A stretch of 64,000 bases of DNA from the NCBI GenBank assembly GCA_963806535.1, contig CAWDYC010000003.1, forward strand, positions 160,001 to 224,000. The letters run 5' to 3'. Position 1 is the first letter of the stretch, and each line of letters starts with the position of its first letter. The position numbers and the translations under genes were made by a program. The DNA comes from Candidatus Bathyarchaeota archaeon. Lineage in GTDB: Archaea > Thermoproteota > Bathyarchaeia > Bathyarchaeales > Bathycorpusculaceae. The notes under the pieces were generated by a model, which worked only from the letters and a program-made list of their open reading frames with translations, had not been told where the DNA came from and did no database searches. Of the stretch, positions 24,736 through 35,668 are shown in pieces.

Positions 24736-24810
24736 GGGCCAATCGTCTAGCCTGGTTAGGACGTTGGCTTTACACGCCAAAGGTCGCCGGTTCAACTCCG
24801 GCTCGGCCCA
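24736..24810 (+). tRNA. tRNA-Val (anticodon TAC)
   Basis: GGGCCAA..TCGGCCCA acceptor stem (one A-C mismatch), D-arm, anticodon arm TTGGC-TTTACAC-GCCAA, T-arm GCCGG-TTCAACT-CCGGC. Confidence 0.95.
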
Positions 24811-25062
24811 CTCCTGATTCCCAAAAGCAGCTTGATTTAAGGTTTTTTGATTTTGTTGACCGTTACTAAATTCCGTAACGCCGTTACAGTTTTCCGTAAC
24901 GTTTAACCCAGAGTTATCAAGCAAAGCAAGTGCATCGCGCATTTGTGCTTTTTTGGCTTTTATGCGATGACGCAATACACGACTATAATCTGCATCAAAG
25001 CTTTCAGGGGACTCTAAGAACTTGTAGTTCGTATTTTGCTTAGCATTTTTTCCATTCCTCAA
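24767..25062 (-). CDS. integrase N-terminal fragment (intN)
   Basis: Reads into the att core as WAEPELNRRPLACKA, the same peptide that starts intC. Confidence 0.8.
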
Positions 25063-25565
25063 TTAATGCAAGAAGCTAATCGTCTATTTAACACCTTGAT
25101 TGTACGCATTTTTACGCTATTAACTTTTTACGGTGTTTAATCACCGTGCGGAAGCACACCGCCTTTTAACTCAGAGGTGAAAAGGCATCAGTTGGCTTCC
25201 CTGTTTAGGGGCCCATTTTGCTTTGTTGTTTCTACGACGTTCAAAAGCCGTGTAGAAAGCAACAGTGCCACTCAGGCTTGAATAGCAAAAAGACAAAACA
25301 ACTTGCCAAAACCTTATTTGTGCTAATAATCCTCAAAACGTAATGCTTATAAAGTAAAGTGTAGTGTACATATATTAAAACAAACGCTACCTATAGAGTT
25401 AAGTGTCCGCCGCTCTAAAAGTGCGCCTTGTTAATGAAACATGGAAGGCTTAAAAAATGTGCGGACACGAGAAATATACAACAAAAAAAAGTAAAATTTT
25501 TACAACTAAGCTGGTTTTTTCATCCAGATTAAATGACACCGAACTTTCATTTGGAATGACGCCGA

Positions 25566-26375
25566 ATGCAGAGCTCACCGCTGCGAAAAAGGAGGAACAA
25601 GAGCATGCATAATATTTGGATGCGTAAAATGGAAAACTTTGACAAGGGCTTGGTTAGCTTCCAAAAATTTGATTTAGGATTTATTGGCAATCAAGTTTCC
25701 GTTGCTATTAAGACCTACGATAAGGAAGGGCTTAATCATCAGGGACCACTTGAGAATATTATGGGTCTTGTAGCAGAATTGGCTTTTGAAGAATGGCTAA
25801 AAAGTTTTGGTGGAGTTCGTGGAAAGGATTACGAATGGAACGAACGCAGAGAGGATTATTGGAACAATGACCCAAGATCTTGGGATTTCAGGTTGCTCAA
25901 GAATGGTTTAACTTTTGAAATCGGAGCGGCAAAACCTAATCATCATTTGGCCGTAATGAAAGACGCAGCGCATAAAAAAGAATCTAATTATTTTGTTCAG
26001 GTAAGGATCATTTGGTTTAACTGTAAAATCAAGGTTTTAGATAAATGGTACGTTATTAACGCCAACTCATATACTCCCTTGGAAATAAAGGGCTCAGAAG
26101 AAATAAAATCCCTTGAAGCAGCCCAAGGAATAATCCAGAATGACACAATAGGCGAGGCGCAGATCTGTGGCTTCGATAAAGTCGGCACGATTGTTAAACA
26201 AGAGAATGGTTGGGTGTTTAGCAAAGCAGGCCAAAGGGAAACACCTTTCTCAAACGGCTTCATGAAGGAATTAAGCAATTTGTGCACAAGAAGCGATTTA
26301 GCAGCCATCATAAGGCGTGCCCTCGGTCTCCGCGAAGATAACAAAGAAAGTGAAGCACGACCTTACGGCATTTAA
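25566..26375 (+). CDS. hypothetical protein, possible PD-(D/E)xK restriction-endonuclease-like nuclease
   Basis: GLVAELAF...WDFRL..GLTFEIG spacing resembles the nuclease core (canonical Lys not evident); start uncertain. Confidence 0.45.
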   Translation: MQSSPLRKRRNKSMHNIWMRKMENFDKGLVSFQKFDLGFIGNQVSVAIKTYDKEGLNHQGPLENIMGLVAELAFEEWLKSFGGVRGKDYEWNERREDYWNNDPRSWDFRLLKNGLTFEIGAAKPNHHLAVMKDAAHKKESNYFVQVRIIWFNCKIKVLDKWYVINANSYTPLEIKGSEEIKSLEAAQGIIQNDTIGEAQICGFDKVGTIVKQENGWVFSKAGQRETPFSNGFMKELSNLCTRSDLAAIIRRALGLREDNKESEARPYGI

Positions 26376-26426
26376 AAGCCGTGTAAAACTGAGCGCGCCA
26401 TTTTGAAAAAATACAATCTACTGTTG

Positions 26427-26975
26427 CTAAAGTAATGTTGACAAATATGAGAAATTAGCCACGACCAAGGATATCACAAGTAAGGAAAGGAATAAGACTA
26501 AGAACGTTAAAGGGATCCAACGCTCAACCAAAGTAAGCTGTGGATATCTCGTTTTTTGGCTTCCCTGGTTTAAGTAATCCCATTCTTTGGCAAATGCAGC
26601 CACAGGCAATCTTTTTTCCATTTCGTGAATTACTTTGAATTTTGCTTCACTCAGTACTCTATAACATTTAATACTGTTATTCCAAATCAGACAAAAAACA
26701 ATTCCAGAAATAGACACGAGGGCAACCCACCAAAAGTACATGTTGCCAATTGGTTTGCTAACCTGAGATAATACACCAATTATCGTTATCAAAGCCGAAA
26801 CAAGGGTTAAATAAAACGTATTTGATTTGGAACGACGCTCAGAATTATTATCAGCCATTTCAACATATAATTTATACTGCTCAAGCAAATGGTCGTTAAA
26901 TTTCTCGCCATAAGTCTTTTCCTCAATTGGAAAAAGCTTAGTTTCTTTGATACCCGTCATCTCGTTGTTAGTCAT
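26427..26975 (-). CDS. 3-TM membrane protein (RipA/octameric-membrane-protein-like), putative effector
   Basis: LLEQYKLYVEMAD..SERR..N.FY motif, three hydrophobic helices, KFKVIHEMEKRLP; 4 bp downstream of the TIR gene. Confidence 0.65.
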   Translation of the reverse strand: MTNNEMTGIKETKLFPIEEKTYGEKFNDHLLEQYKLYVEMADNNSERRSKSNTFYLTLVSALITIIGVLSQVSKPIGNMYFWWVALVSISGIVFCLIWNNSIKCYRVLSEAKFKVIHEMEKRLPVAAFAKEWDYLNQGSQKTRYPQLTLVERWIPLTFLVLFLSLLVISLVVANFSYLSTLL

Positions 26976-26979
26976 CTTT

Positions 26980-27462
26980 TCACGGAGAATTAATTTCTCG
27001 GTCTATATCTTTTAAATTCCAATTCAATATAGGTGCTTTGTTGTCTTTCATAGCTTCTGGAATAGCATGATTTTTATCACGATTAATTCTAACACCAATG
27101 ACCTTCTTTCCTTGTCTGTAGGCTTCATCTATTTCCCAGTTTACCGCATTCCTCTCTGCGGTCTTTTCACCTATCATAACCACAACTACGCTCGTCTGAG
27201 CAATTCTTTGTTTGCAGTTTGTCCTCCATTTTTCATCAAATGGTTCTTTAACTGAGTAGTCCCTGAACTCAAGGTCATAATTATCGTTCTTTGCCTGCGA
27301 GCGCAAAAGGTCTACTTGAGCTTCATCATCAACATGAAAACTTATGAAAACGTTACGAAGCCGAGCTCGTTCTGCCTCATCAACAGTCCTATCAAAAGCT
27401 GCCTCTGATTCTCCAACACCTTTTGATGAACCAAGGCTATACCCGAAACTACCCCCACCCAT
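26980..27462 (-). CDS. ThsB-like TIR-domain protein (MTH538/DUF1863-like) with Gly-rich N-terminal extension
   Basis: NVFISF, DYS, SVVVVMIG, VNWEI (catalytic Glu), GKKVIGV; ATG 27462 follows a GGTGG SD-like motif, giving MGGGSFGY. Confidence 0.85.
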   Translation of the reverse strand: MGGGSFGYSLGSSKGVGESEAAFDRTVDEAERARLRNVFISFHVDDEAQVDLLRSQAKNDNYDLEFRDYSVKEPFDEKWRTNCKQRIAQTSVVVVMIGEKTAERNAVNWEIDEAYRQGKKVIGVRINRDKNHAIPEAMKDNKAPILNWNLKDIDREINSP

Positions 27463-27519
27463 GATTACCACCATTTTGTTAAAGTCATGTTATCGCTTTT
27501 AAGGTTTTTAAGACTTACC

Positions 27520-28158
27520 TTAGCGGTGATTTGAAGATTTTGAAAGACCATTTTCTGCAGCTATGCGTTCTTTGCAAGAAATACATTCTCCGCACGATTT
27601 CTCGGTCCCAGCATGGCAAGAGTAGGTCAAATTAAGCGGCAATCCATGTTTCCGAGCAAGCATTAAAGAATCAATCTTATCCAAATTTATCAAAGGAGCA
27701 AGAATTGTAATGTTTATGCCTAAGGCAAGGCTCAGCGTTTTTTGTGTTTGTGCCAAGAAATCCTTTGTTTGATCGGGAAATATTGGATTTGCTAAGATAC
27801 CCGTTGCAACAACGTAAGCTCCCTTATCATATCCATAGGCTGCGCCGAAGGTTAGGAAAAGTAGATTCCGCGTAGGAGTGAAGGCTTCCTTTTCAATATC
27901 CAAATCTTTGTTTGTTAGACCGCTTGGTACAATTCTGCCAAAGTCGTGTGCGTTTATTCTTTCGGGAGTTAACTTAAGATAATTACAGATTTTCTGACAG
28001 GATGACCATTCCTCTTCACAGGCAAGTTGTCCATAATCTACAAATAATGGAAAAACTCTGTGCCCTTTCATTTGTAATTGTTGCATAATAACAGAGGAGT
28101 CAACTCCACCCGAGCAAAGAACTACGACTCTCAATTCCTCTTCCTCATATAATTCCAA
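27520..28158 (-). CDS. QueC-family (7-cyano-7-deazaguanine synthase-like; Cap9-like) ATP pyrophosphatase
   Basis: SGGVDS PP-loop, DYGQ, PTRNL, PD, SCH..CGECISC Zn motif. Confidence 0.9.
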   Translation of the reverse strand: MELYEEEELRVVVLCSGGVDSSVIMQQLQMKGHRVFPLFVDYGQLACEEEWSSCQKICNYLKLTPERINAHDFGRIVPSGLTNKDLDIEKEAFTPTRNLLFLTFGAAYGYDKGAYVVATGILANPIFPDQTKDFLAQTQKTLSLALGINITILAPLINLDKIDSLMLARKHGLPLNLTYSCHAGTEKSCGECISCKERIAAENGLSKSSNHR

Positions 28159-28832
28159 ACAGCCATGTCAAATGTTGCCATTAGTAAGCCTCTCTCCTCG
28201 CACAGTTCTTTGAGAATATCCTCAAGCTCAAGGTATATTCTGGGAGTAACAGATTTTATCTGCAGTCCATTAAGCGCGTTAATCTTTGTCAGAAATGAAA
28301 TAATGTGTGTGTCAATTATTGCGAGTTTTTTAGAATAACCTATATTTCTCAAAAAATGAGATGCTTCCTTAAGACCAATTCCAGAAATATTCTTAATTAG
28401 TGATGATCTTGCATCTTCCTCTGAACTAGAATGAGCCAAAACGCAATGCAACCATGTTTCCTCAGAAGATATGATTGTTGCTGACTTTGTAATATTTTTG
28501 GAGCGAACATTAGGGAAACGATATTTTCTTAGTTCACCATCGGTTTTCTTGGGAAAATAAATTGGCTTTGAAAGCTCTTTAGCAATTATCTTGTCGGCTA
28601 AAGGATTATCAGCTATCCATTCAACGGACAGATAGCCTCGTCTTATCAAATGCCTTACTGCTGAAAAAGCAAGCTCATATGGAACATTACTTGACAAGAT
28701 ACAAAGACATAGTTCATGCCACAAATCAGTTTCTGTCATAAGGTCCCATTTTCGATTTTCAAAGTGGAGAGCTGGTATTGTTGAGTATTCTAACAAAACG
28801 CCGTTAAATGTTTCATTATCTGCAATGAGCAT
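28131..28832 (-). CDS. N-glycosylase/DNA lyase (8-oxoG glycosylase OGG-like; Cap11-like)
   Basis: ELCLCILS, YRFPN.R, HhH motif GIGLKEASHFLRNIG, AIIDTHI. Confidence 0.85.
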   Translation of the reverse strand: MLIADNETFNGVLLEYSTIPALHFENRKWDLMTETDLWHELCLCILSSNVPYELAFSAVRHLIRRGYLSVEWIADNPLADKIIAKELSKPIYFPKKTDGELRKYRFPNVRSKNITKSATIISSEETWLHCVLAHSSSEEDARSSLIKNISGIGLKEASHFLRNIGYSKKLAIIDTHIISFLTKINALNGLQIKSVTPRIYLELEDILKELCEERGLLMATFDMAVWNYMRKRN

Positions 28833-28946
28833 TGGTTGAATCTCGGTTTTTATCTTTACATTTAGAATGCGCTAAAAATATATATCCTTAACTATTTTTC
28901 ATTTAATTAATTTTGATCACTTTTTATTGCATTATAGATAAATATT

Positions 28947-29957
28947 CTAAAATTTATCTATTCTATTAAGAATATCGTCACCAATTTGAACCTTCAGAGA
29001 AGCACGTAAATTGTCATAACGTATCATATTCTGCATTTTGACAACAAAGTCTTGATAATATAGCAGATTATGCAATAAAGCCCTGTCTAAATAGGCTGAT
29101 GATGCCAATTTAGGATTGCTGCAGATTCTACATTTGCAATTAATCAAATCAAGATGTGAAAAATCTTTTATTGTGTCGTCTCCGGGGTCCAAAATATGTT
29201 CGATCCAATCTAAGCTGTCGAAACTGTCAGAACCGCAATACGCATAAATTAACATTGAAATAGGGTTTCCACAACCTAAGACATGTAAAAGAAACCTTTC
29301 ATCACTTTTGTCAAGAATGTGTCTGATTTCAGTAAGAGTTTCCGCTCTTTCCAAAATGCCTTTACCGCAATCCCTTTCAGAAACAGCAATACCACAACAC
29401 AAACTGGAATACTCATCAATAAAATCACTAACTAATGCCAATTGATGGTCAACTGATTTTCCATGAAGGATCGGCAGAAAAATATTTCCACCACAGAAGG
29501 CTGATGATTCAACCGCTGCTTGCACTACATTTTCTTGGTATTGTTTAACGTTCTTGGTATTTTCCGCGGTTGGAAGAATATCGAAGCCGGTAAAGATATC
29601 CATCGTGACCTGAGAAATAACGCTTTTGTATGCTTTCATATCCCAAGTTGGATCATTCTTATTATCGCTCTCAAATACGCCGCTATCCAAAAGTAAAAAG
29701 CCTTGTTTTCTAAATTCAGCGATGCTTTGCTTAAGTTTTTCTTTTTCTTCGAGTTTGTTAATATCATAAGCTGAAAGCAATAATCGCGGATACTTATTAT
29801 GTTTTAGCATGTAAAAAAGTTCAGTCAAAGAAAATCGGTTTTTAGTACTGGACAACGATGGAAAATAGGTTGGAGTATTGAAGACCTTATTTTCAAATTT
29901 TATCTCACAAATCCTTGCAAGTTTCCCATTTTTATGTTGTATTGTTGCTTTATTCAA
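28947..29957 (-). CDS. tRNA-guanine transglycosylase (TGT)-fold protein (Cap10/DpdA-like)
   Basis: TPTYFP, LLDSGVFE, PILHG, HVLGCG, FDS, CKCRIC...HN Zn site; no C-terminal PUA domains. Confidence 0.85.
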   Translation of the reverse strand: MNKATIQHKNGKLARICEIKFENKVFNTPTYFPSLSSTKNRFSLTELFYMLKHNKYPRLLLSAYDINKLEEKEKLKQSIAEFRKQGFLLLDSGVFESDNKNDPTWDMKAYKSVISQVTMDIFTGFDILPTAENTKNVKQYQENVVQAAVESSAFCGGNIFLPILHGKSVDHQLALVSDFIDEYSSLCCGIAVSERDCGKGILERAETLTEIRHILDKSDERFLLHVLGCGNPISMLIYAYCGSDSFDSLDWIEHILDPGDDTIKDFSHLDLINCKCRICSNPKLASSAYLDRALLHNLLYYQDFVVKMQNMIRYDNLRASLKVQIGDDILNRIDKF

Positions 29958-30106
29958 CTAAGGCACTCCAGATCCTTATTTCAATAGTTCCTATTTGTAG
30001 GGTTATATTATAAAGAATTAACTACTAAATAGAATTATACAAAGAAACTTACCTTGAAAAGTTAGAAATAAATGATTTACTAAAGGATAGTCTGTGTGGA
30101 AGACAT

Positions 30107-30580
30107 TTGAAGAGGCTAACTTTAAGCGTAGCTCAAACAGCAATTTTCGCTTCTATTTATGCTGTTTCATCGATTTTGCTTGGGCCACTGGGATATTCAT
30201 GGATTCAGTTACGGATTGGAGAAGCCTTGACTCCCCTGCCGCTACTTTTTGGAATTCCTGCAATGGCTGGATTAACCATCGGGTGTTTTGTTACCAATTT
30301 AACGAGCCCAGTGGGTTTGCCTGACATGGTTTTCGGGCCCTTACTGACTCTAATTGCCGCATTTCTTTCTTGGAAATTAACATTTGGCAAACGCATTTTA
30401 GCTTGTTTATATCCGGTTATCATAAATGCAATAGGCGTAAGTGCCTATCTTTCATCTTTCTATGGCGTCCCATACTTGGTCACCGTTTTGACCGTTGGCG
30501 CTGGAGAGTTTGTTGCTGCAGTTATTATTGGATATCCAACATTATTGGCGTTAAGAAAATTTATGGGTAATAAAAAGTAG
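30107..30580 (+). CDS. QueT-family queuosine-precursor transporter
   Basis: IQLRIGEAL..LP, GLTIGCFV.N..SP.G..D..FG signature; ~5 TM helices. Confidence 0.85.
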   Translation: MKRLTLSVAQTAIFASIYAVSSILLGPLGYSWIQLRIGEALTPLPLLFGIPAMAGLTIGCFVTNLTSPVGLPDMVFGPLLTLIAAFLSWKLTFGKRILACLYPVIINAIGVSAYLSSFYGVPYLVTVLTVGAGEFVAAVIIGYPTLLALRKFMGNKK

Positions 30581-30712
30581 AGATTCTTTTGTTTCGTCGT
30601 GACTTTACTCAGGCCTCAAATCCCTCGCTCACTCAATGAGGGTACGTCATAGTGAGTTGTGCACGTGATTGAACACCGTGCAAAAGCGTAGAGCCGTGAG
30701 CTTTGGAGCCAT

Positions 30713-31236
30713 CTATGAAATCTGACTAATACATTCCTGCAACAGTTGCCGATAAGTTGCTTGCCAACCGTTTGAAGGGAATGGTATAGATATTTTGTTC
30801 AGTAATCTCTCGCCAAAACCGGCTTCTTCAAGTGCAAGCTTGACTGGGGCAAATAAATTATTTTTCAAAATAATGATTCTTTCTGGCTGAAGGCTTCTAA
30901 TATCATTTACAAGCCTTGGAATTTGATCTTTTAGAACTCTGTTTTTTCCGCAATAGGCAACTTGTTGACTGGTCTATAGCTGGCATCTATCAAGAAGAAT
31001 CCTCTTGATTGGAACTCTTTTAGCTGGGTGTTTTTGTCAGTGCCGACAGGTAATTTGCCACAAGGAATTTTCAATGCTTTCATTGTTTCCCTGAATAAAC
31101 AGCCACGACCGGTTGCTGACTCAAAATAAAAGTATCCGCCGCCTTCGGGTGGTGACTCGCCAATAAGAAGGAATTCAATGTCTTTGCCTATTCGTCGTGG
31201 GTCATATTTGTCCCTTGCTTCAATATAGTCTTGCAT
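30713..31236 (-). CDS. uracil-DNA glycosylase superfamily protein (frameshift in A-run near 30945)
   Basis: LLIGESPP..G.YFY, GFFLID; second frame ..LQPERIIIL...IPFPS.GWQ to TAG at 30713. Confidence 0.65.
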
Positions 31237-31625
31237 GTCAACAGCTACGGCTTCTGATTTATTAGATTTAGCGGATAAATACGATGATTCTTTGTCGCCA
31301 ACTTGTTTAATCTTAATAGCCTATGTACTTGTACGGTGATTGAACACCGTGAAGAAGCATAGGCCGTAGTAAAAAGCGGAGATTAGCATTAACCGATCAA
31401 GTCAAACATATTTGAAGCCTAATATGTTTCAGGGAGCTTGCATTAGCACCTTAAAGCACTGTTGTGTTTCTGTACGGTGTTCAAACACCGTGGCTAAACA
31501 TAGGCTAAGGACAAAGGCGACGGAAGACCAAGCATGGTCGAATCCTACTTAAGCTATGATCCAGTTGAACTGCTAAAATATTCGACCGGCTTTCTCGACC
31601 GAAAAAATCAAAATGAGTCATTTTT

Positions 31626-31829
31626 TTACTTATGCCAGAGCCTACTTAATAGATAGATTACAGCGGTAGCTGCAAGCAGCACTGGAACTATGAACACATT
31701 AGCTTCCATCCACTGCCAAATTGGTCCCGGTAACCCAAACATACCTATGCCATAACCAGCTAAGACTACAATCCAAACAAAACTATACAGGGCGATTACT
31801 GCAATCCATACCTTCATGAGCTTACGCAT
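31626..31829 (-). CDS. small 2-TM membrane protein
   Basis: MRKLMKVWIAVIALYSFVW...; two hydrophobic segments. Confidence 0.55.
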   Translation of the reverse strand: MRKLMKVWIAVIALYSFVWIVVLAGYGIGMFGLPGPIWQWMEANVFIVPVLLAATAVIYLLSRLWHK

Positions 31830-31917
31830 TTTCTCACTTTTGAAACCACTTATAATCCATAGGTTATCCATCAACCACATAAAAGCTTTTGACTTATCCG
31901 TGCAAGAGGACACAAGG

Positions 31918-32067
31918 TTGCCGAAGCGATATGTTAACATAAAATTGCCTGTTGAGCTTGCAGACGAAGTTGACAAAATCGTGGATAAGAAGCTTCTGGG
32001 ATACCGCAGCAGAGGAGAATTTGTAGCGGAAGCGGTGAGAGACAAGCTAATCCAAGTTAAAAAATAA
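31918..32067 (+). CDS. ribbon-helix-helix (CopG-like) DNA-binding protein
   Basis: YVNIKLPVELADEVDKIV..GYRSRGEFVAEAVR; TTG start after GAGGA. Confidence 0.8.
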   Translation: MPKRYVNIKLPVELADEVDKIVDKKLLGYRSRGEFVAEAVRDKLIQVKK

Positions 32068-32331
32068 TTAACCTAAACGACCTTACAGACTATACATGGC
32101 TTTTAAACGCCGTAAAAGATACTAAAACAAAATTGGTCCTTAAAGAGCAAAATCAGCCGATTGCACTTTTGTACCTTTAGGCAAAAAAGCGGTGTGCTCC
32201 TGTACGGTGTTCGATCACCGTAAACAAAATCTGCGTTCCCTCAGCGTCTAATCTTATTCAATTGCGATGAACCGAGTGTTTAGTCAAAATACTTACCCTA
32301 AAGTCTTATATTAAGAAAGCACAACTAAAAA

Positions 32332-32892
32332 TTGATGAGCCTACCTACACTTGATCCAGCAGAGTTTGAAACTCTACGATCCACTTTAGTAAGCACTTAC
32401 AACTCACAAACTACCGCTCATGTAGGATATATAATAGCTTTTGCCATAGGCATCGCAGCCATTCTTTACCAAATTGACTTTAAGACTTTCTTTAAAGACT
32501 ACCCATCAAAAAAGCAGCGTTATCCTTTATTTTATGTTCCATTAAGTGGTCTAATTGGAGGAATCGTCTTCCTTTTTTACCGCGTAATTTTCTGGGCTTA
32601 TATGAGTACGTATGTCTTACGTGTACCCGCTACACAAGTTGCAGCATTGCTTGCTGCGTATGCAAGTGATCCAACTGTCACTGAGATTTATGCGATTCAA
32701 CTTAGCTGCACTCAAAAATTTGTTGGAACGCACAGTTTAGCCAGCACTTTTTACTCTTTTGCAAGTAATTCTCTTTTAGATTCTACGTTATTATTTTTGG
32801 GGTTTTCCATCATTGCGTTCTTAATAACTTTGCTATTAGACTACATTTTGTACAAAAAGAAAGATACACCCGTTAAGAAGAACAACAACTAA
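32332..32892 (+). CDS. hypothetical 3-TM membrane protein
   Basis: 186-aa ORF with three hydrophobic helices. Confidence 0.6.
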   Translation: MMSLPTLDPAEFETLRSTLVSTYNSQTTAHVGYIIAFAIGIAAILYQIDFKTFFKDYPSKKQRYPLFYVPLSGLIGGIVFLFYRVIFWAYMSTYVLRVPATQVAALLAAYASDPTVTEIYAIQLSCTQKFVGTHSLASTFYSFASNSLLDSTLLFLGFSIIAFLITLLLDYILYKKKDTPVKKNNN

Positions 32893-32977
32893 ACTCTAAG
32901 TTCATTTGACGACTACTGCCCAGTTATATTCATATGGATACGATTCTGCGGGTTAAGGCCGCCAAGCGAAAAACGTT

Positions 32978-33859
32978 TCAGTTTACTCCATTTTCCATTG
33001 TAGCTAAAGCACTCAAGGTTCGGTCCCTAAGCTCTTTGAACGATGGGCTCCAGTAATGGCGTATAAATATGGACGGTGGTATTCTGCCTTGCAACAAATC
33101 CACCTCTTCTTTTATCAGACCGTTTCTAACCATGAATGTGCCAAAGCTGTCTCTAAGTTCATTTATTCTACACCGCATTTTTTTTCGTTGCAACCGTTTG
33201 AGTATTGCATTGTAACCGACTGGTTGGCTTTTTGCAATCTCATCAATTAGGTTTTTTGGCACAATCGATATGTACACATTCTTCGTACCGCGTAAGAACA
33301 GCTTTTTGAATTGAAAGTGCTCCAAAAGCCCATCAGTATTAAGGTAGCAGTCTAACTTGCCTTCTTTTGACAACTCGATTATTTTGTTAAACGAATTTAC
33401 AGCCTCTTCCTTACGCAAACCACTTAGACGCAAATATTCTAAAAGCACCTTTTCCTCAGGTTTAAGCAAAGGCTGTACAGCAGATACCACTCCCATAAAT
33501 CACTATTATGGTTATTGTACAATCGACTGAAAGAGGAGAAGGCATCCCGCTTACGCCACTTAATCCCATAACTTTTTAGAGCTGCCCTGAACTCCTCATG
33601 AAAACCAAGATACTTACAAAGCGCAATCAAAGACTTAATTGAATTATCCCTTAATGACTCTGGAATTGCATCGATATCCCTGAGATTGCCGTATAAAATG
33701 TGATTGTACTTTTTCGTATAGGTCATGATGGTGTGAGCATAGGACTTTGCATATTTTTTGAAAACCCACACCTTAAATTCTGCCCAGTCAAGGTCGCGTA
33801 TGCCTGCTTCGAGGAGCGCTTTACACGCCAAAGGTCGCCGGTTCAACTCCGGCTCGGCC
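32978..33859 (-). CDS. tyrosine integrase catalytic fragment (intC; frameshift near 33495)
   Basis: SGLR..EA (Arg), RGTK (Lys), ELR, LLQGR, RHY (Tyr); begins within attR. Confidence 0.88.
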
Positions 33860-33909
33860 AACCACCATTCCTGCTAAAGGCTGAATCAAGAAGGTTTAGG
33901 AAAAGACTA

Positions 33910-35595: not shown

Positions 35596-35644
35596 TAAAC
35601 TTTTCTGCTGTTTCTTCCCTGAAAGCTAGAATTAAATGCCTGAA

Positions 35645-35668
35645 GGTTCAACTCCGGCTCGGCCCACT
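35645..35668 (+). repeat. third, 24-bp copy of the tRNA-Val 3' end (att remnant)
   Basis: GGTTCAACTCCGGCTCGGCCCACT identical to 24789-24812. Confidence 0.9.

Follow-up and report, generated by a model that had tools for sequence, protein, structure and literature searches.

The locus described here raises the question of whether an archaeal TIR protein carries a 7-deazaguanine base on its N-terminal glycine, as the CD-NTase of type IV CBASS does. It lies in a stretch of 64,000 nucleotides from a Candidatus Bathyarchaeota archaeon (contig CAWDYC010000003.1), which we call the window and to which all coordinates refer. According to the accessible text of Wassarman et al. (10.1101/2025.04.06.647259), Cap9 is required to conjugate 7-amido-7-deazaguanine to Gly2 of the CD-NTase after methionine removal, and Cap10 binds the modified N-terminus, whose tail follows the motif M(G/S)G(G/S)GG; the solved CdnD peptide contains GGSFG. 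The preliminary description of this DNA had stated that Cap9 tags the N-terminal glycine of the CD-NTase and that Cap10 binds the product, in agreement with that text. On the analogy with type IV CBASS, the archaeal TIR with its Met-Gly-Gly-Gly tail is probably tagged in the same way.

The idea that a TIR is deazaguanylated is already in print as a prediction. In the available part of Yirmiya et al. (bioRxiv, December 2025), cap9, cap10 and cap11 are found alongside TIR and effector genes (Fig. 6G), and AlphaFold 3 sets a Pseudomonadales ThsB on Cap10 (ipTM 0.79) and Cap9 (ipTM 0.62) in a manner like that of type IV CBASS. As far as that account goes, the window operon resembles these Thoeris operons in joining a ThsB TIR and an effector to cap9/10/11, with the TIR predicted to meet Cap9 and Cap10, and it differs in being archaeal, the example modelled there being a Pseudomonadales bacterium and a prediction only. 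The operon is a further, archaeal and mobile-element-borne member of the systems that combine a TIR with cap9/10/11. In the text accessible to us, a 2026 review (PMC13434031) describes the tag for CBASS, and a preprint on the QueC family (PMC13082051) makes no mention of TIR or Thoeris; the literature searched contained no published experimental test of a deazaguanine tag on a TIR.

Operon layout and helper proteins

We found five tightly packed genes on the minus strand, among which the TIR gene is the fourth:

28947–29957, minus strand: TGT-fold, Cap10-like protein, 336 aa (Pfam TGT, 1.8e-09; PADLOC TGT of CBASS IV, 4.3e-23)
28131–28832, minus strand: Ogg-HhH glycosylase, Cap11-like, 233 aa (Pfam Ogg-HhH, 7.8e-36)
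27520–28158, minus strand: QueC-fold, Cap9-like protein, 212 aa, TTG start (Pfam QueC, 1.4e-38)
26980–27462, minus strand: ThsB-type TIR gene, 160 aa from the ATG at 27462, with an alternative in-frame ATG at 27474 (Pfam ThsB_TIR, 7.8e-20)
26427–26975, minus strand: 8xMP/RipA-family membrane protein, 182 aa, predicted effector (Pfam 8xMP, 5.2e-38)

The last 28 nt of the Ogg gene are shared with the beginning of the QueC-like gene, and the 8xMP gene begins 4 nt past the TIR stop. Equivalents of cap9, cap10 and cap11 all stand in this one operon, and the gene order is the same in 12 complete genome loci. The trio is like that of type IV CBASS, which is recognized by Cap9 and Cap10 with an optional Cap11. 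Unlike type IV CBASS, the synthase here is a TIR and not a CD-NTase, and a domain search of all six operon and flanking proteins detected no SMODS domain. A role of the TIR as an NAD-depleting CBASS effector was considered and rejected, there being no cyclase.

When the QueC-like protein was compared with PDB sequences as a single sequence, its best match was Cap9 (9nto_B, 3.5e-20), with QueC 3bl5 at 2.7e-14; a family profile of the window protein and 13 relatives matched QueC 2pg3 (6.7e-30) and Cap9 (1.2e-28) about equally. Alignment with Cap9 paired S18/S23 with S16/S21, D117 with D129, Y115 with F127 and the RN pair with R97-N98, all of which are kept together with four cysteines. The Cap9 residues named by Wassarman et al. 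were invariant in 14/14 family members, F127 excepted (Y in locus L014, G in L018). With its ATP loop, zinc site and base-binding residues intact, the protein qualifies by sequence as a putative ligase. The TIR-linked QueC proteins have [FY]PDQT in common (YGDQT in L018), unlike Cap9 with YYD[CS] and housekeeping QueC with YPDC. The QatC model matched the window protein at 3e-4 only. We also ran the PADLOC QueC model over 401 genomes of the phylum, with matches in 96; among 30 of those loci that were retrieved, the TIR, TGT and Ogg neighbours were present in only 2 (the window's own and that of genome G287), the other 28 were housekeeping-like (25–33% identity), and type IV CBASS was not reached.

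For the TGT-like protein, the sole PDB match of the single sequence was Cap10 (9ntn_A, 4.8e-05), and the profile of the window protein and 13 relatives placed arcTGT 1iq8 (3.9e-17) slightly ahead of Cap10 (3.7e-15). Cap10 H226/D248 correspond to H225/D247 and D122 to D126, invariant in 14/14 family members. Cap10 D73-S74 can be paired with D91-S92(-G93), likewise invariant in the family, through a shared DSG motif, at which the HMMER alignment is out of register, and Cap10 K154 had no clear counterpart in the alignment. The protein keeps the CxCxxC...H zinc set of arcTGT and the full arcTGT catalytic set, and in retaining an arcTGT-like zinc site it is unlike its type IV CBASS counterpart. Its predicted structure (pLDDT 90.3) returned only canonical TGT and arcTGT among the 50 Foldseek matches listed, Cap10 not being among them, so that the fold does not separate the TGT-like protein from those enzymes.

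All three helpers scored under the NCBI cut-offs for the housekeeping enzymes: the QueC-like protein reached 124.1 bits against 150.3, the TGT-like protein 37.9 bits against 350 in the arcTGT model, and the Ogg-like protein 133.6 bits against 183 in the NCBIfam N-glycosylase/DNA lyase model. By these profile scores the helpers are dedicated paralogues, apart from the housekeeping enzymes.

The 8xMP protein has three hydrophobic segments (about residues 51–74, 78–99 and 147–182), and the clusters that contain it in the atlas carry the name 'RipA family octameric membrane protein'. Its gene adjoins the TIR gene in 25/26 genome loci and would, as a candidate effector, provide the adjacent effector gene that characterizes Thoeris. 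Comparison with PDB sequences gave no match at E up to 1, and a literature search on 8xMP and the octameric membrane protein returned nothing relevant.

The TIR tail, its helix and the predicted complex

The TIR protein was modelled with AlphaFold from a 45-row alignment (mean pLDDT 75). Residues 1–15 were disordered, residues 16–33 formed a helix and the TIR fold began at residue 36, which gives two features ahead of the fold:

27418–27459, minus strand: Gly/Ser-rich tip, residues 2–15, with Gly2 as the predicted acceptor (pLDDT 30–35, as for residues 1–15)
27364–27417, minus strand: conserved amphipathic helix, residues 16–33, predicted docking element (helix in the model; E20, F23, E29)

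A flexible extension of about 30 residues had been expected from the preliminary reading; in the model the floppy character is retained for residues 1–15, whereas the extension is about 35 residues long and residues 16–33 are predicted to be helical. Within the helix, F23 is conserved in 45/45 rows, E20 in 43/45 and E29 in 41/45. The 45 rows were chosen among the 120 listed homologues for having the tail as their annotated start, which biases columns 1–4, and unbiased counts of the tail are those of the surveys of genome loci, the 120 homologues and metagenome loci given below. The top Foldseek matches of the TIR model were the B. cereus TIR 8fz9, EcThsB 8wcf and further ThsB chains. E110 (27133–27135) aligned with the glutamate of a V-x-x-E-I/V motif in four solved ThsB/TIR chains, which we take to be the catalytic glutamate of ThsB; by sequence the protein would thus be a ThsB-type TIR of the Thoeris kind, with a glutamate at the catalytic position. 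Searched against PDB, the 40-aa tail matched nothing but a designed repeat protein (E 0.12), and no CdnD chain.

To the extent that the type IV CBASS tail is described in the available source, the window protein is like it in that the signal synthase begins M-G/S-G-G/S and in the succession of tail and docking helix. Against the motif M(G/S)G(G/S)GG, the first six residues, MGGGSF, fit at positions 1–4 and have S and F at positions 5–6. Among 3243 host open frames of at least 120 codons, a single one had M[GS]G[GS] at its first ATG.

We then co-folded the TIR and the QueC-like protein from alignments of 45 and 14 rows, respectively. The pair scored 0.83 and the best of three controls 0.00; the mark is reached by 58/80 solved complexes and 2/110 mismatched pairs, a calibration that is rough here, where our own alignments were used, and the pass may partly reflect likeness to the Cap9–CdnD complex (9nto), which is already solved. 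Contact agreement between runs was at least 64% and the pLDDT of the partner at least 74. The predicted interface comprised residues 14–35 (lowest error at F23) and 151–160 of the TIR, and residues 7, 9, 27–28, 31, 113–116 and 143–170 of the QueC-like protein. According to the accessible text of Wassarman et al. (10.1101/2025.04.06.647259), defence was lost when M29, L104 and S135 in the CdnD-binding cleft of Cap9 were mutated together. By manual count on the alignment these positions correspond to Q27, V116 and G147, all three of which are in the predicted interface, a likeness to type IV CBASS at the level of the model. Helix 16–33 is thus predicted to dock into the cleft of the QueC-like protein. 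Tip residues 1–13 were outside the confident contacts and Gly2 was not placed in the active site. The co-folding suggested beforehand, carried out with the QueC-like protein, thus placed the helix confidently and not the tip.

The tail was then followed across relatives. A database search gave 582 TIR homologues at E 0.001, and the best 120 of these were examined. We found 88 annotated from the tail (three small residues after a start residue), 26 annotated longer yet with M, L or V at the tail spot, and 6 otherwise. The residue after the tail start was glycine in 101, serine in 10 and alanine in 3, and the tail was 35–40 aa long in 112/114. A scan of one genome per species yielded 26 loci, mostly archaeal (Bathyarchaeota, Nitrososphaerota, Thermoplasmatota and Hadarchaeota), plus one Brocadia and five Chloroflexota. 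A QueC-like gene stood just upstream in 14 of them, accompanied by a TGT-like gene in 13/14 and an Ogg-like gene in 12/14 (L002 is cut by a contig end and L018 is without Ogg). In each of the 14, a start codon (11 ATG, 3 GTG) stood 37–44 codons ahead of the first TIR strand; the residue after it was G (10), S (2), A (1) or T (1), and a Gly-rich run came next. Ten TIR–8xMP genome loci without helper genes had their start 3–8 codons before the first TIR strand; L006 is cut by a contig end, and L016 offers just ~180 nt upstream, too little to judge linkage.

The metagenome loci gave a similar picture, with the proviso that the best 80 of 143 relatives were kept, a choice that favours tail-bearing kin. 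A QueC match was found in 62 of these 80 loci, with a Gly-rich tail in 62/62; 57 followed the strict tail pattern, and of the five variants, two had GGR, one had M-V-GGSGS and two, identical to each other, had CTG. A further 13 of the 80 were too short upstream to judge. The conservation of the tail in QueC-linked TIRs, on which the preliminary proposal had been made to depend, therefore held in all 14 genome and all 62 metagenome loci, and judged from these sequences the Gly-rich tail is beyond chance. In a maximum-likelihood tree of the TIR domain (27 rows), 14/15 helper-linked rows formed one clade with L006 and L008 (support 84/83), and L018 lay outside it on a long branch. The distribution of tail and helpers needed only 3 changes, and the well-supported branches permit a single origin. 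Because tail and helpers are clustered on the tree, their co-occurrence amounts to a small number of events rather than 14, and what gives it weight is that several phyla have kept the tail.

Taking the established gene identities, conserved residues, tail conservation with helper co-occurrence and predicted helix–cleft complex as a basis, we infer a course of events that runs from methionine removal through covalent modification, capture by the TGT-like protein and TIR signalling to an effector role of 8xMP. The TIR would be translated from the ATG at 27462, and methionine aminopeptidase would bare Gly2. Helix 16–33 would dock in the cleft of the QueC-like enzyme and the 14-residue Gly/Ser tip would extend to its active site, where ATP-activated 7-carboxy-7-deazaguanine would be joined to the Gly2 amine to give an N-terminal 7-amido-7-deazaguanine (NDG). 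The TGT-like protein would take the NDG tip into its base pocket and hold or prime the TIR, and upon infection the TIR would make an NAD-derived signal by which the 8xMP membrane protein opens or assembles. We consider it likely that the locus is such a five-gene antiviral operon, in which a Thoeris-like core of TIR and 8xMP is joined to a type IV CBASS trio and the TIR is N-terminally deazaguanylated. The earlier suggestion that a CBASS-type tag had been transplanted onto a TIR gains support, at the level of sequence and model, from the helper genes, the linkage of the tail, the natural comparators and the co-fold.

A tail without a QueC-like gene bears on this reading. In five metagenome loci (L128, L131, L133, L136 and L137) a TIR with an MGGG tail and 8xMP occurred with a divergent TGT-like gene, and no QueC or Ogg was detected in the retrieved DNA, up to 5 kb on each side. 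The gene in question encodes a far-diverged TGT relative of ~290 aa that overlaps the TIR start (in L136, Pfam TGT at 4.4e-05, below the cut-off), and the loci are set in defence islands that contain CARF, Cas4-like, Eco57I-type and SNF2/PLD genes. L008, nested in the helper clade, is weakly similar: its TIR has a Gly-rich, degenerate and helix-less extension that is not MGGG, and a divergent TGT-like protein just upstream matched weakly (7e-08), while the window's TGT-like protein had no match in the L008 genome. The tail thus always accompanies a TGT-like gene and not always a QueC-like gene, and TIR–8xMP occurs naturally in three forms, with the trio and the tail, with TGT-like only and the tail, and with neither.

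Since a tail with TGT-like but without QueC exists, the tail alone is no proof of QueC-dependent tagging. Tail and helix could instead serve the TGT-like (and QueC-like) proteins as a handle for docking, with no base on Gly2; the TIR would then be regulated through non-covalent capture, or a free deazapurine would occupy the pocket. The five loci favour this, as does a co-fold that places the helix confidently and not the tip, and for the TGT-like-only loci a non-covalent or trans-supplied reading may apply. For the window we regard it as unlikely: the QueC-like protein has an intact ATP loop, zinc cysteines and base-binding Asp, a small residue occupies position 2 in 114 of the best 120 of 582 homologues, and in type IV CBASS, in the text available of 10.1101/2025.04.06.647259, deletion of Cap9 led to loss of the adduct and a weaker Cap10 complex.

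Because the TGT-like protein keeps all arcTGT catalytic and zinc residues, and QueC-less TGT-like relatives exist, it might also act as a transglycosylase that swaps the base-tagged TIR into RNA or DNA for guanine, a covalent conjugate that would place or fire the TIR and that the Ogg-like protein would cut off. We think this improbable for the operon.

Translation start of the TIR gene

N-terminal deazaguanylation of the TIR requires that Gly2 follow the initiating methionine. The TIR frame on the minus strand contains a TAA (27492–27490), then an ATG at 27474 (MVVIM...), a GTG at 27471 and the ATG at 27462, from which it reads MGGGSFGYSLGSS..., also written MGGGSFGYSLGSSKGVGESEAAF..., with the N-terminus MGGGSFGY. 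One further feature belongs to this region:

27468–27472, minus strand: SD-like GGTGG, 5 nt 5′ of the ATG at 27462 (read from the sequence and from genome SD statistics)

The GGTGG motif ahead of the second ATG had been noticed beforehand, and we confirmed it with a spacing of 5 nt on the minus strand. The 3′ end of the host 16S rRNA, found in its own genome, is ...GGATCACCTCCT, and the word upstream of the TIR, GGTGGTAATC, agrees with the ideal GGAGGTGATC at 8/10 positions (manual count). Upstream of the first ATGs of 1097 long host frames, GGAGG occurred 31 times versus 2 in the control window and GGTG 75 times versus 24. The SD peak of the host was at −14 to −11, and the GGTG of the TIR begins at −10, the edge of the peak; SD words serve only a minority of host genes.

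Translation from the ATG at 27474 would yield (M)VVIMGGG, in which the glycines are internal and no acceptor exists. This ATG is the first start codon of the frame, and an upstream ATG is also present in two close relatives (P0002, MVIAM...; L001, MGDCM...). We nevertheless consider this start very unlikely. The four extra residues are not conserved among relatives, and their equivalents are impossible in 10/14 QueC-linked loci, in which the tail start is the most upstream start of the open frame. GGTGG precedes 27462, whereas inspection of the sequence 5′ of 27474 revealed no SD-like word, and the public gene call for the TIR protein (P0001) is 160 aa, which places the start at 27462. In the two identical metagenome loci a CTG stands directly before the glycine codons just past a stop (CTG-GGA-GGA-GGG, two codons past the stop and 8 nt past GGAGAGG). 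The TIR would accordingly start at 27462, as conservation, the SD-like word and the 160-aa call suggest, and the glycine that had been expected at the N-terminus after methionine removal would be Gly2.

Mobile element, host pathway and related systems

The operon is carried by an integrated element of ~9 kb:

24767–33862: integrated element with the operon; a 45-nt repeat of the 3′ half of tRNA-Val marks its two ends
24736–24811: tRNA-Val, the basis of the element boundary
32978–33496, minus strand: integrase (archaeal phage integrase, 4.9e-08; phrog_5127 integrase)

The repeats (24767–24811 and 33818–33862) match at 98%. With regard to the supply of 7-carboxy-7-deazaguanine, a housekeeping QueC (contig C5), a 544-aa arcTGT frame and QueD were found in the host on contigs other than that of the operon. 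With TIGR03365, QueE (the CDG synthase) was not identified in the host genome, and the best small radical-SAM frame was NrdG2. That QueC, TGT and Ogg modify nucleic acid in a Dpd-like or tRNA 7-deazaguanine pathway, merely beside an independent TIR–8xMP pair, is highly improbable, for although the catalytic and zinc residues of arcTGT are all kept in the TGT-like protein, a QueT transporter gene adjoins the TGT-like gene and stand-alone TIR–8xMP pairs exist, no tail is seen away from helper genes, the genes form a single operon in which neighbours overlap or abut, the co-fold stands up to its controls, the host already has a housekeeping QueC and arcTGT, and a search of the 26 genome loci met QueT adjacency in L001 alone. 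A Dpd-like DNA modification island in particular was considered and rejected, the linkage of tail and helpers, the single operon and the co-fold being against it.

Other defence systems offer partial parallels to N-terminal deazaguanylation of the TIR. Qat is alike in aiming a QueC-family enzyme at the N-terminal glycine of a partner protein; unlike the window operon it is without a TGT-like or Ogg-like partner and without a TIR, and the active site of QatC is remodelled. In what is available on type II CBASS and Thoeris operons with Cap2/Cap3, a conjugation module is likewise common to CD-NTase and TIR systems, although its chemistry is ubiquitin-like and acts on a C-terminal glycine, not with a nucleobase on an N-terminus. 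If the tag is real, nucleobase–protein conjugation would be a portable means of regulation, passed among unrelated signal synthases (CD-NTase, TIR and, differently, QatB) and carried by mobile elements between bacteria and four or more archaeal phyla. The three natural TIR–8xMP arrangements provide a ready-made comparison for the function of the tag.

We further searched plasmids by tblastn with the TGT-like protein and obtained 16 records, 13 rhizobial and 3 from Bacillus, one of each of which was opened. The Bacillus mycoides plasmid encoded a classic type IV CBASS with QueC, a TGT-like protein and a SMODS cyclase that starts MGGSGGNNIPS. The Rhizobium plasmid encoded a TIR-TGT fusion, a HhH-GPD glycosylase, QueC, a 155-aa ThsB TIR that begins MGGGSSGSWS, and a Mrr_cat-like protein; its gene order is that of the window (TGT-Ogg-QueC-TIR), with the Mrr_cat-like protein in place of 8xMP. 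A strong SD lies 5–7 nt upstream of the start of both the cyclase and the Rhizobium TIR. Rhizobial plasmids of culturable bacteria thus carry a close analogue of the window operon. Both window helpers were nearer to their rhizobial TIR-linked counterparts than to those of the Bacillus CBASS: the QueC-like protein was 39% identical to the rhizobial one (3e-44) and 28% to that of the Bacillus CBASS (8e-22), and the TGT-like protein was 28% identical to its rhizobial counterpart over 321 aa (1e-36) and 27% to that of the Bacillus CBASS over 265 aa (3e-19).

An integrated element at tRNA-Val

When the surroundings of the defence operon were examined, we found that the 3′ 45 nt of a tRNA-Val gene (24767-24811) were repeated at 33818-33862 with a 98% match, and that an archaeal phage-type integrase gene lay just inside the second copy. 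The operon therefore sits on an integrated element of about 9 kb. A further, partial copy of the 45 nt was found at 35623-35667, and a second small element remnant possibly follows the first. The features of the region are as follows.

24736-24811, tRNA-Val
33818-33862, second copy of the tRNA-Val 3′ 45 nt
32978-33496, archaeal phage-type integrase gene
30107-30580 (+), gene for QueT, a queuosine-precursor transporter, divergent from the TGT-like gene
25119-25159, 25233-25257, 26364-26388, 30665-30691, 31322-31362, 31463-31503 and 32193-32221, palindromic repeat copies

The short palindromic repeats, with the core ACGGTGTT..AACACCGT, are dispersed over the intergenic stretches of the element, one of them lying between the ends of the converging 8xMP gene and 269-aa ORF. 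Four element ORFs, 25566-26375 (+), 30931-31236 (-), 31626-32045 (-) and 32332-32892 (+), matched no Pfam or PHROGs family. Among the 26 genome loci searched, QueT adjoined the TGT-like gene elsewhere only in L001, the closest relative; on contig C5, the housekeeping QueC is adjoined by a weak QueT-like match.

The QueC-like motif and related loci

The TIR-linked QueC-like proteins, archaeal and rhizobial, including that of the window (27520-28158), had in common the motif [FY]PDQT (YGDQT in genome locus L018), whereas housekeeping QueC has YPDC and CBASS Cap9 has YYD[CS] in its place. A tblastn search of plasmids with the window TGT-like protein revealed 13 matching rhizobial plasmid records. 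On the Rhizobium sophoriradicis plasmid (L057, 5566-9916) we found a bacterial counterpart with the gene order of the window operon. In it, an additional TIR domain is fused to the N-terminus of the TGT-like protein, and an Mrr_cat-like effector takes the place of 8xMP.

Five metagenome loci (L128, L131, L133, L136 and L137), embedded in defence islands, carry three genes, encoding a far-diverged TGT-like protein of about 290 aa, an MGGG-tailed TIR and 8xMP; QueC and Ogg were not found near them. Weak resemblance to this variant was seen at genome locus L008:6232-6777.

Start codons of the TIR genes

In two identical QueC-linked TIR genes of metagenome loci (L097:86 and L120:1277), CTG instead of ATG, GTG or TTG stands immediately 5′ of GGG. 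With a stop two codons 5′ of the CTG and the word GGAGAGG preceding it by 8 nt, CTG is probably the start. In the window, a 7-codon ORF in another frame (27465-27488, -), from ATG 27488 to TAA 27465, stops 2 nt short of ATG 27462 and probably arose by chance.
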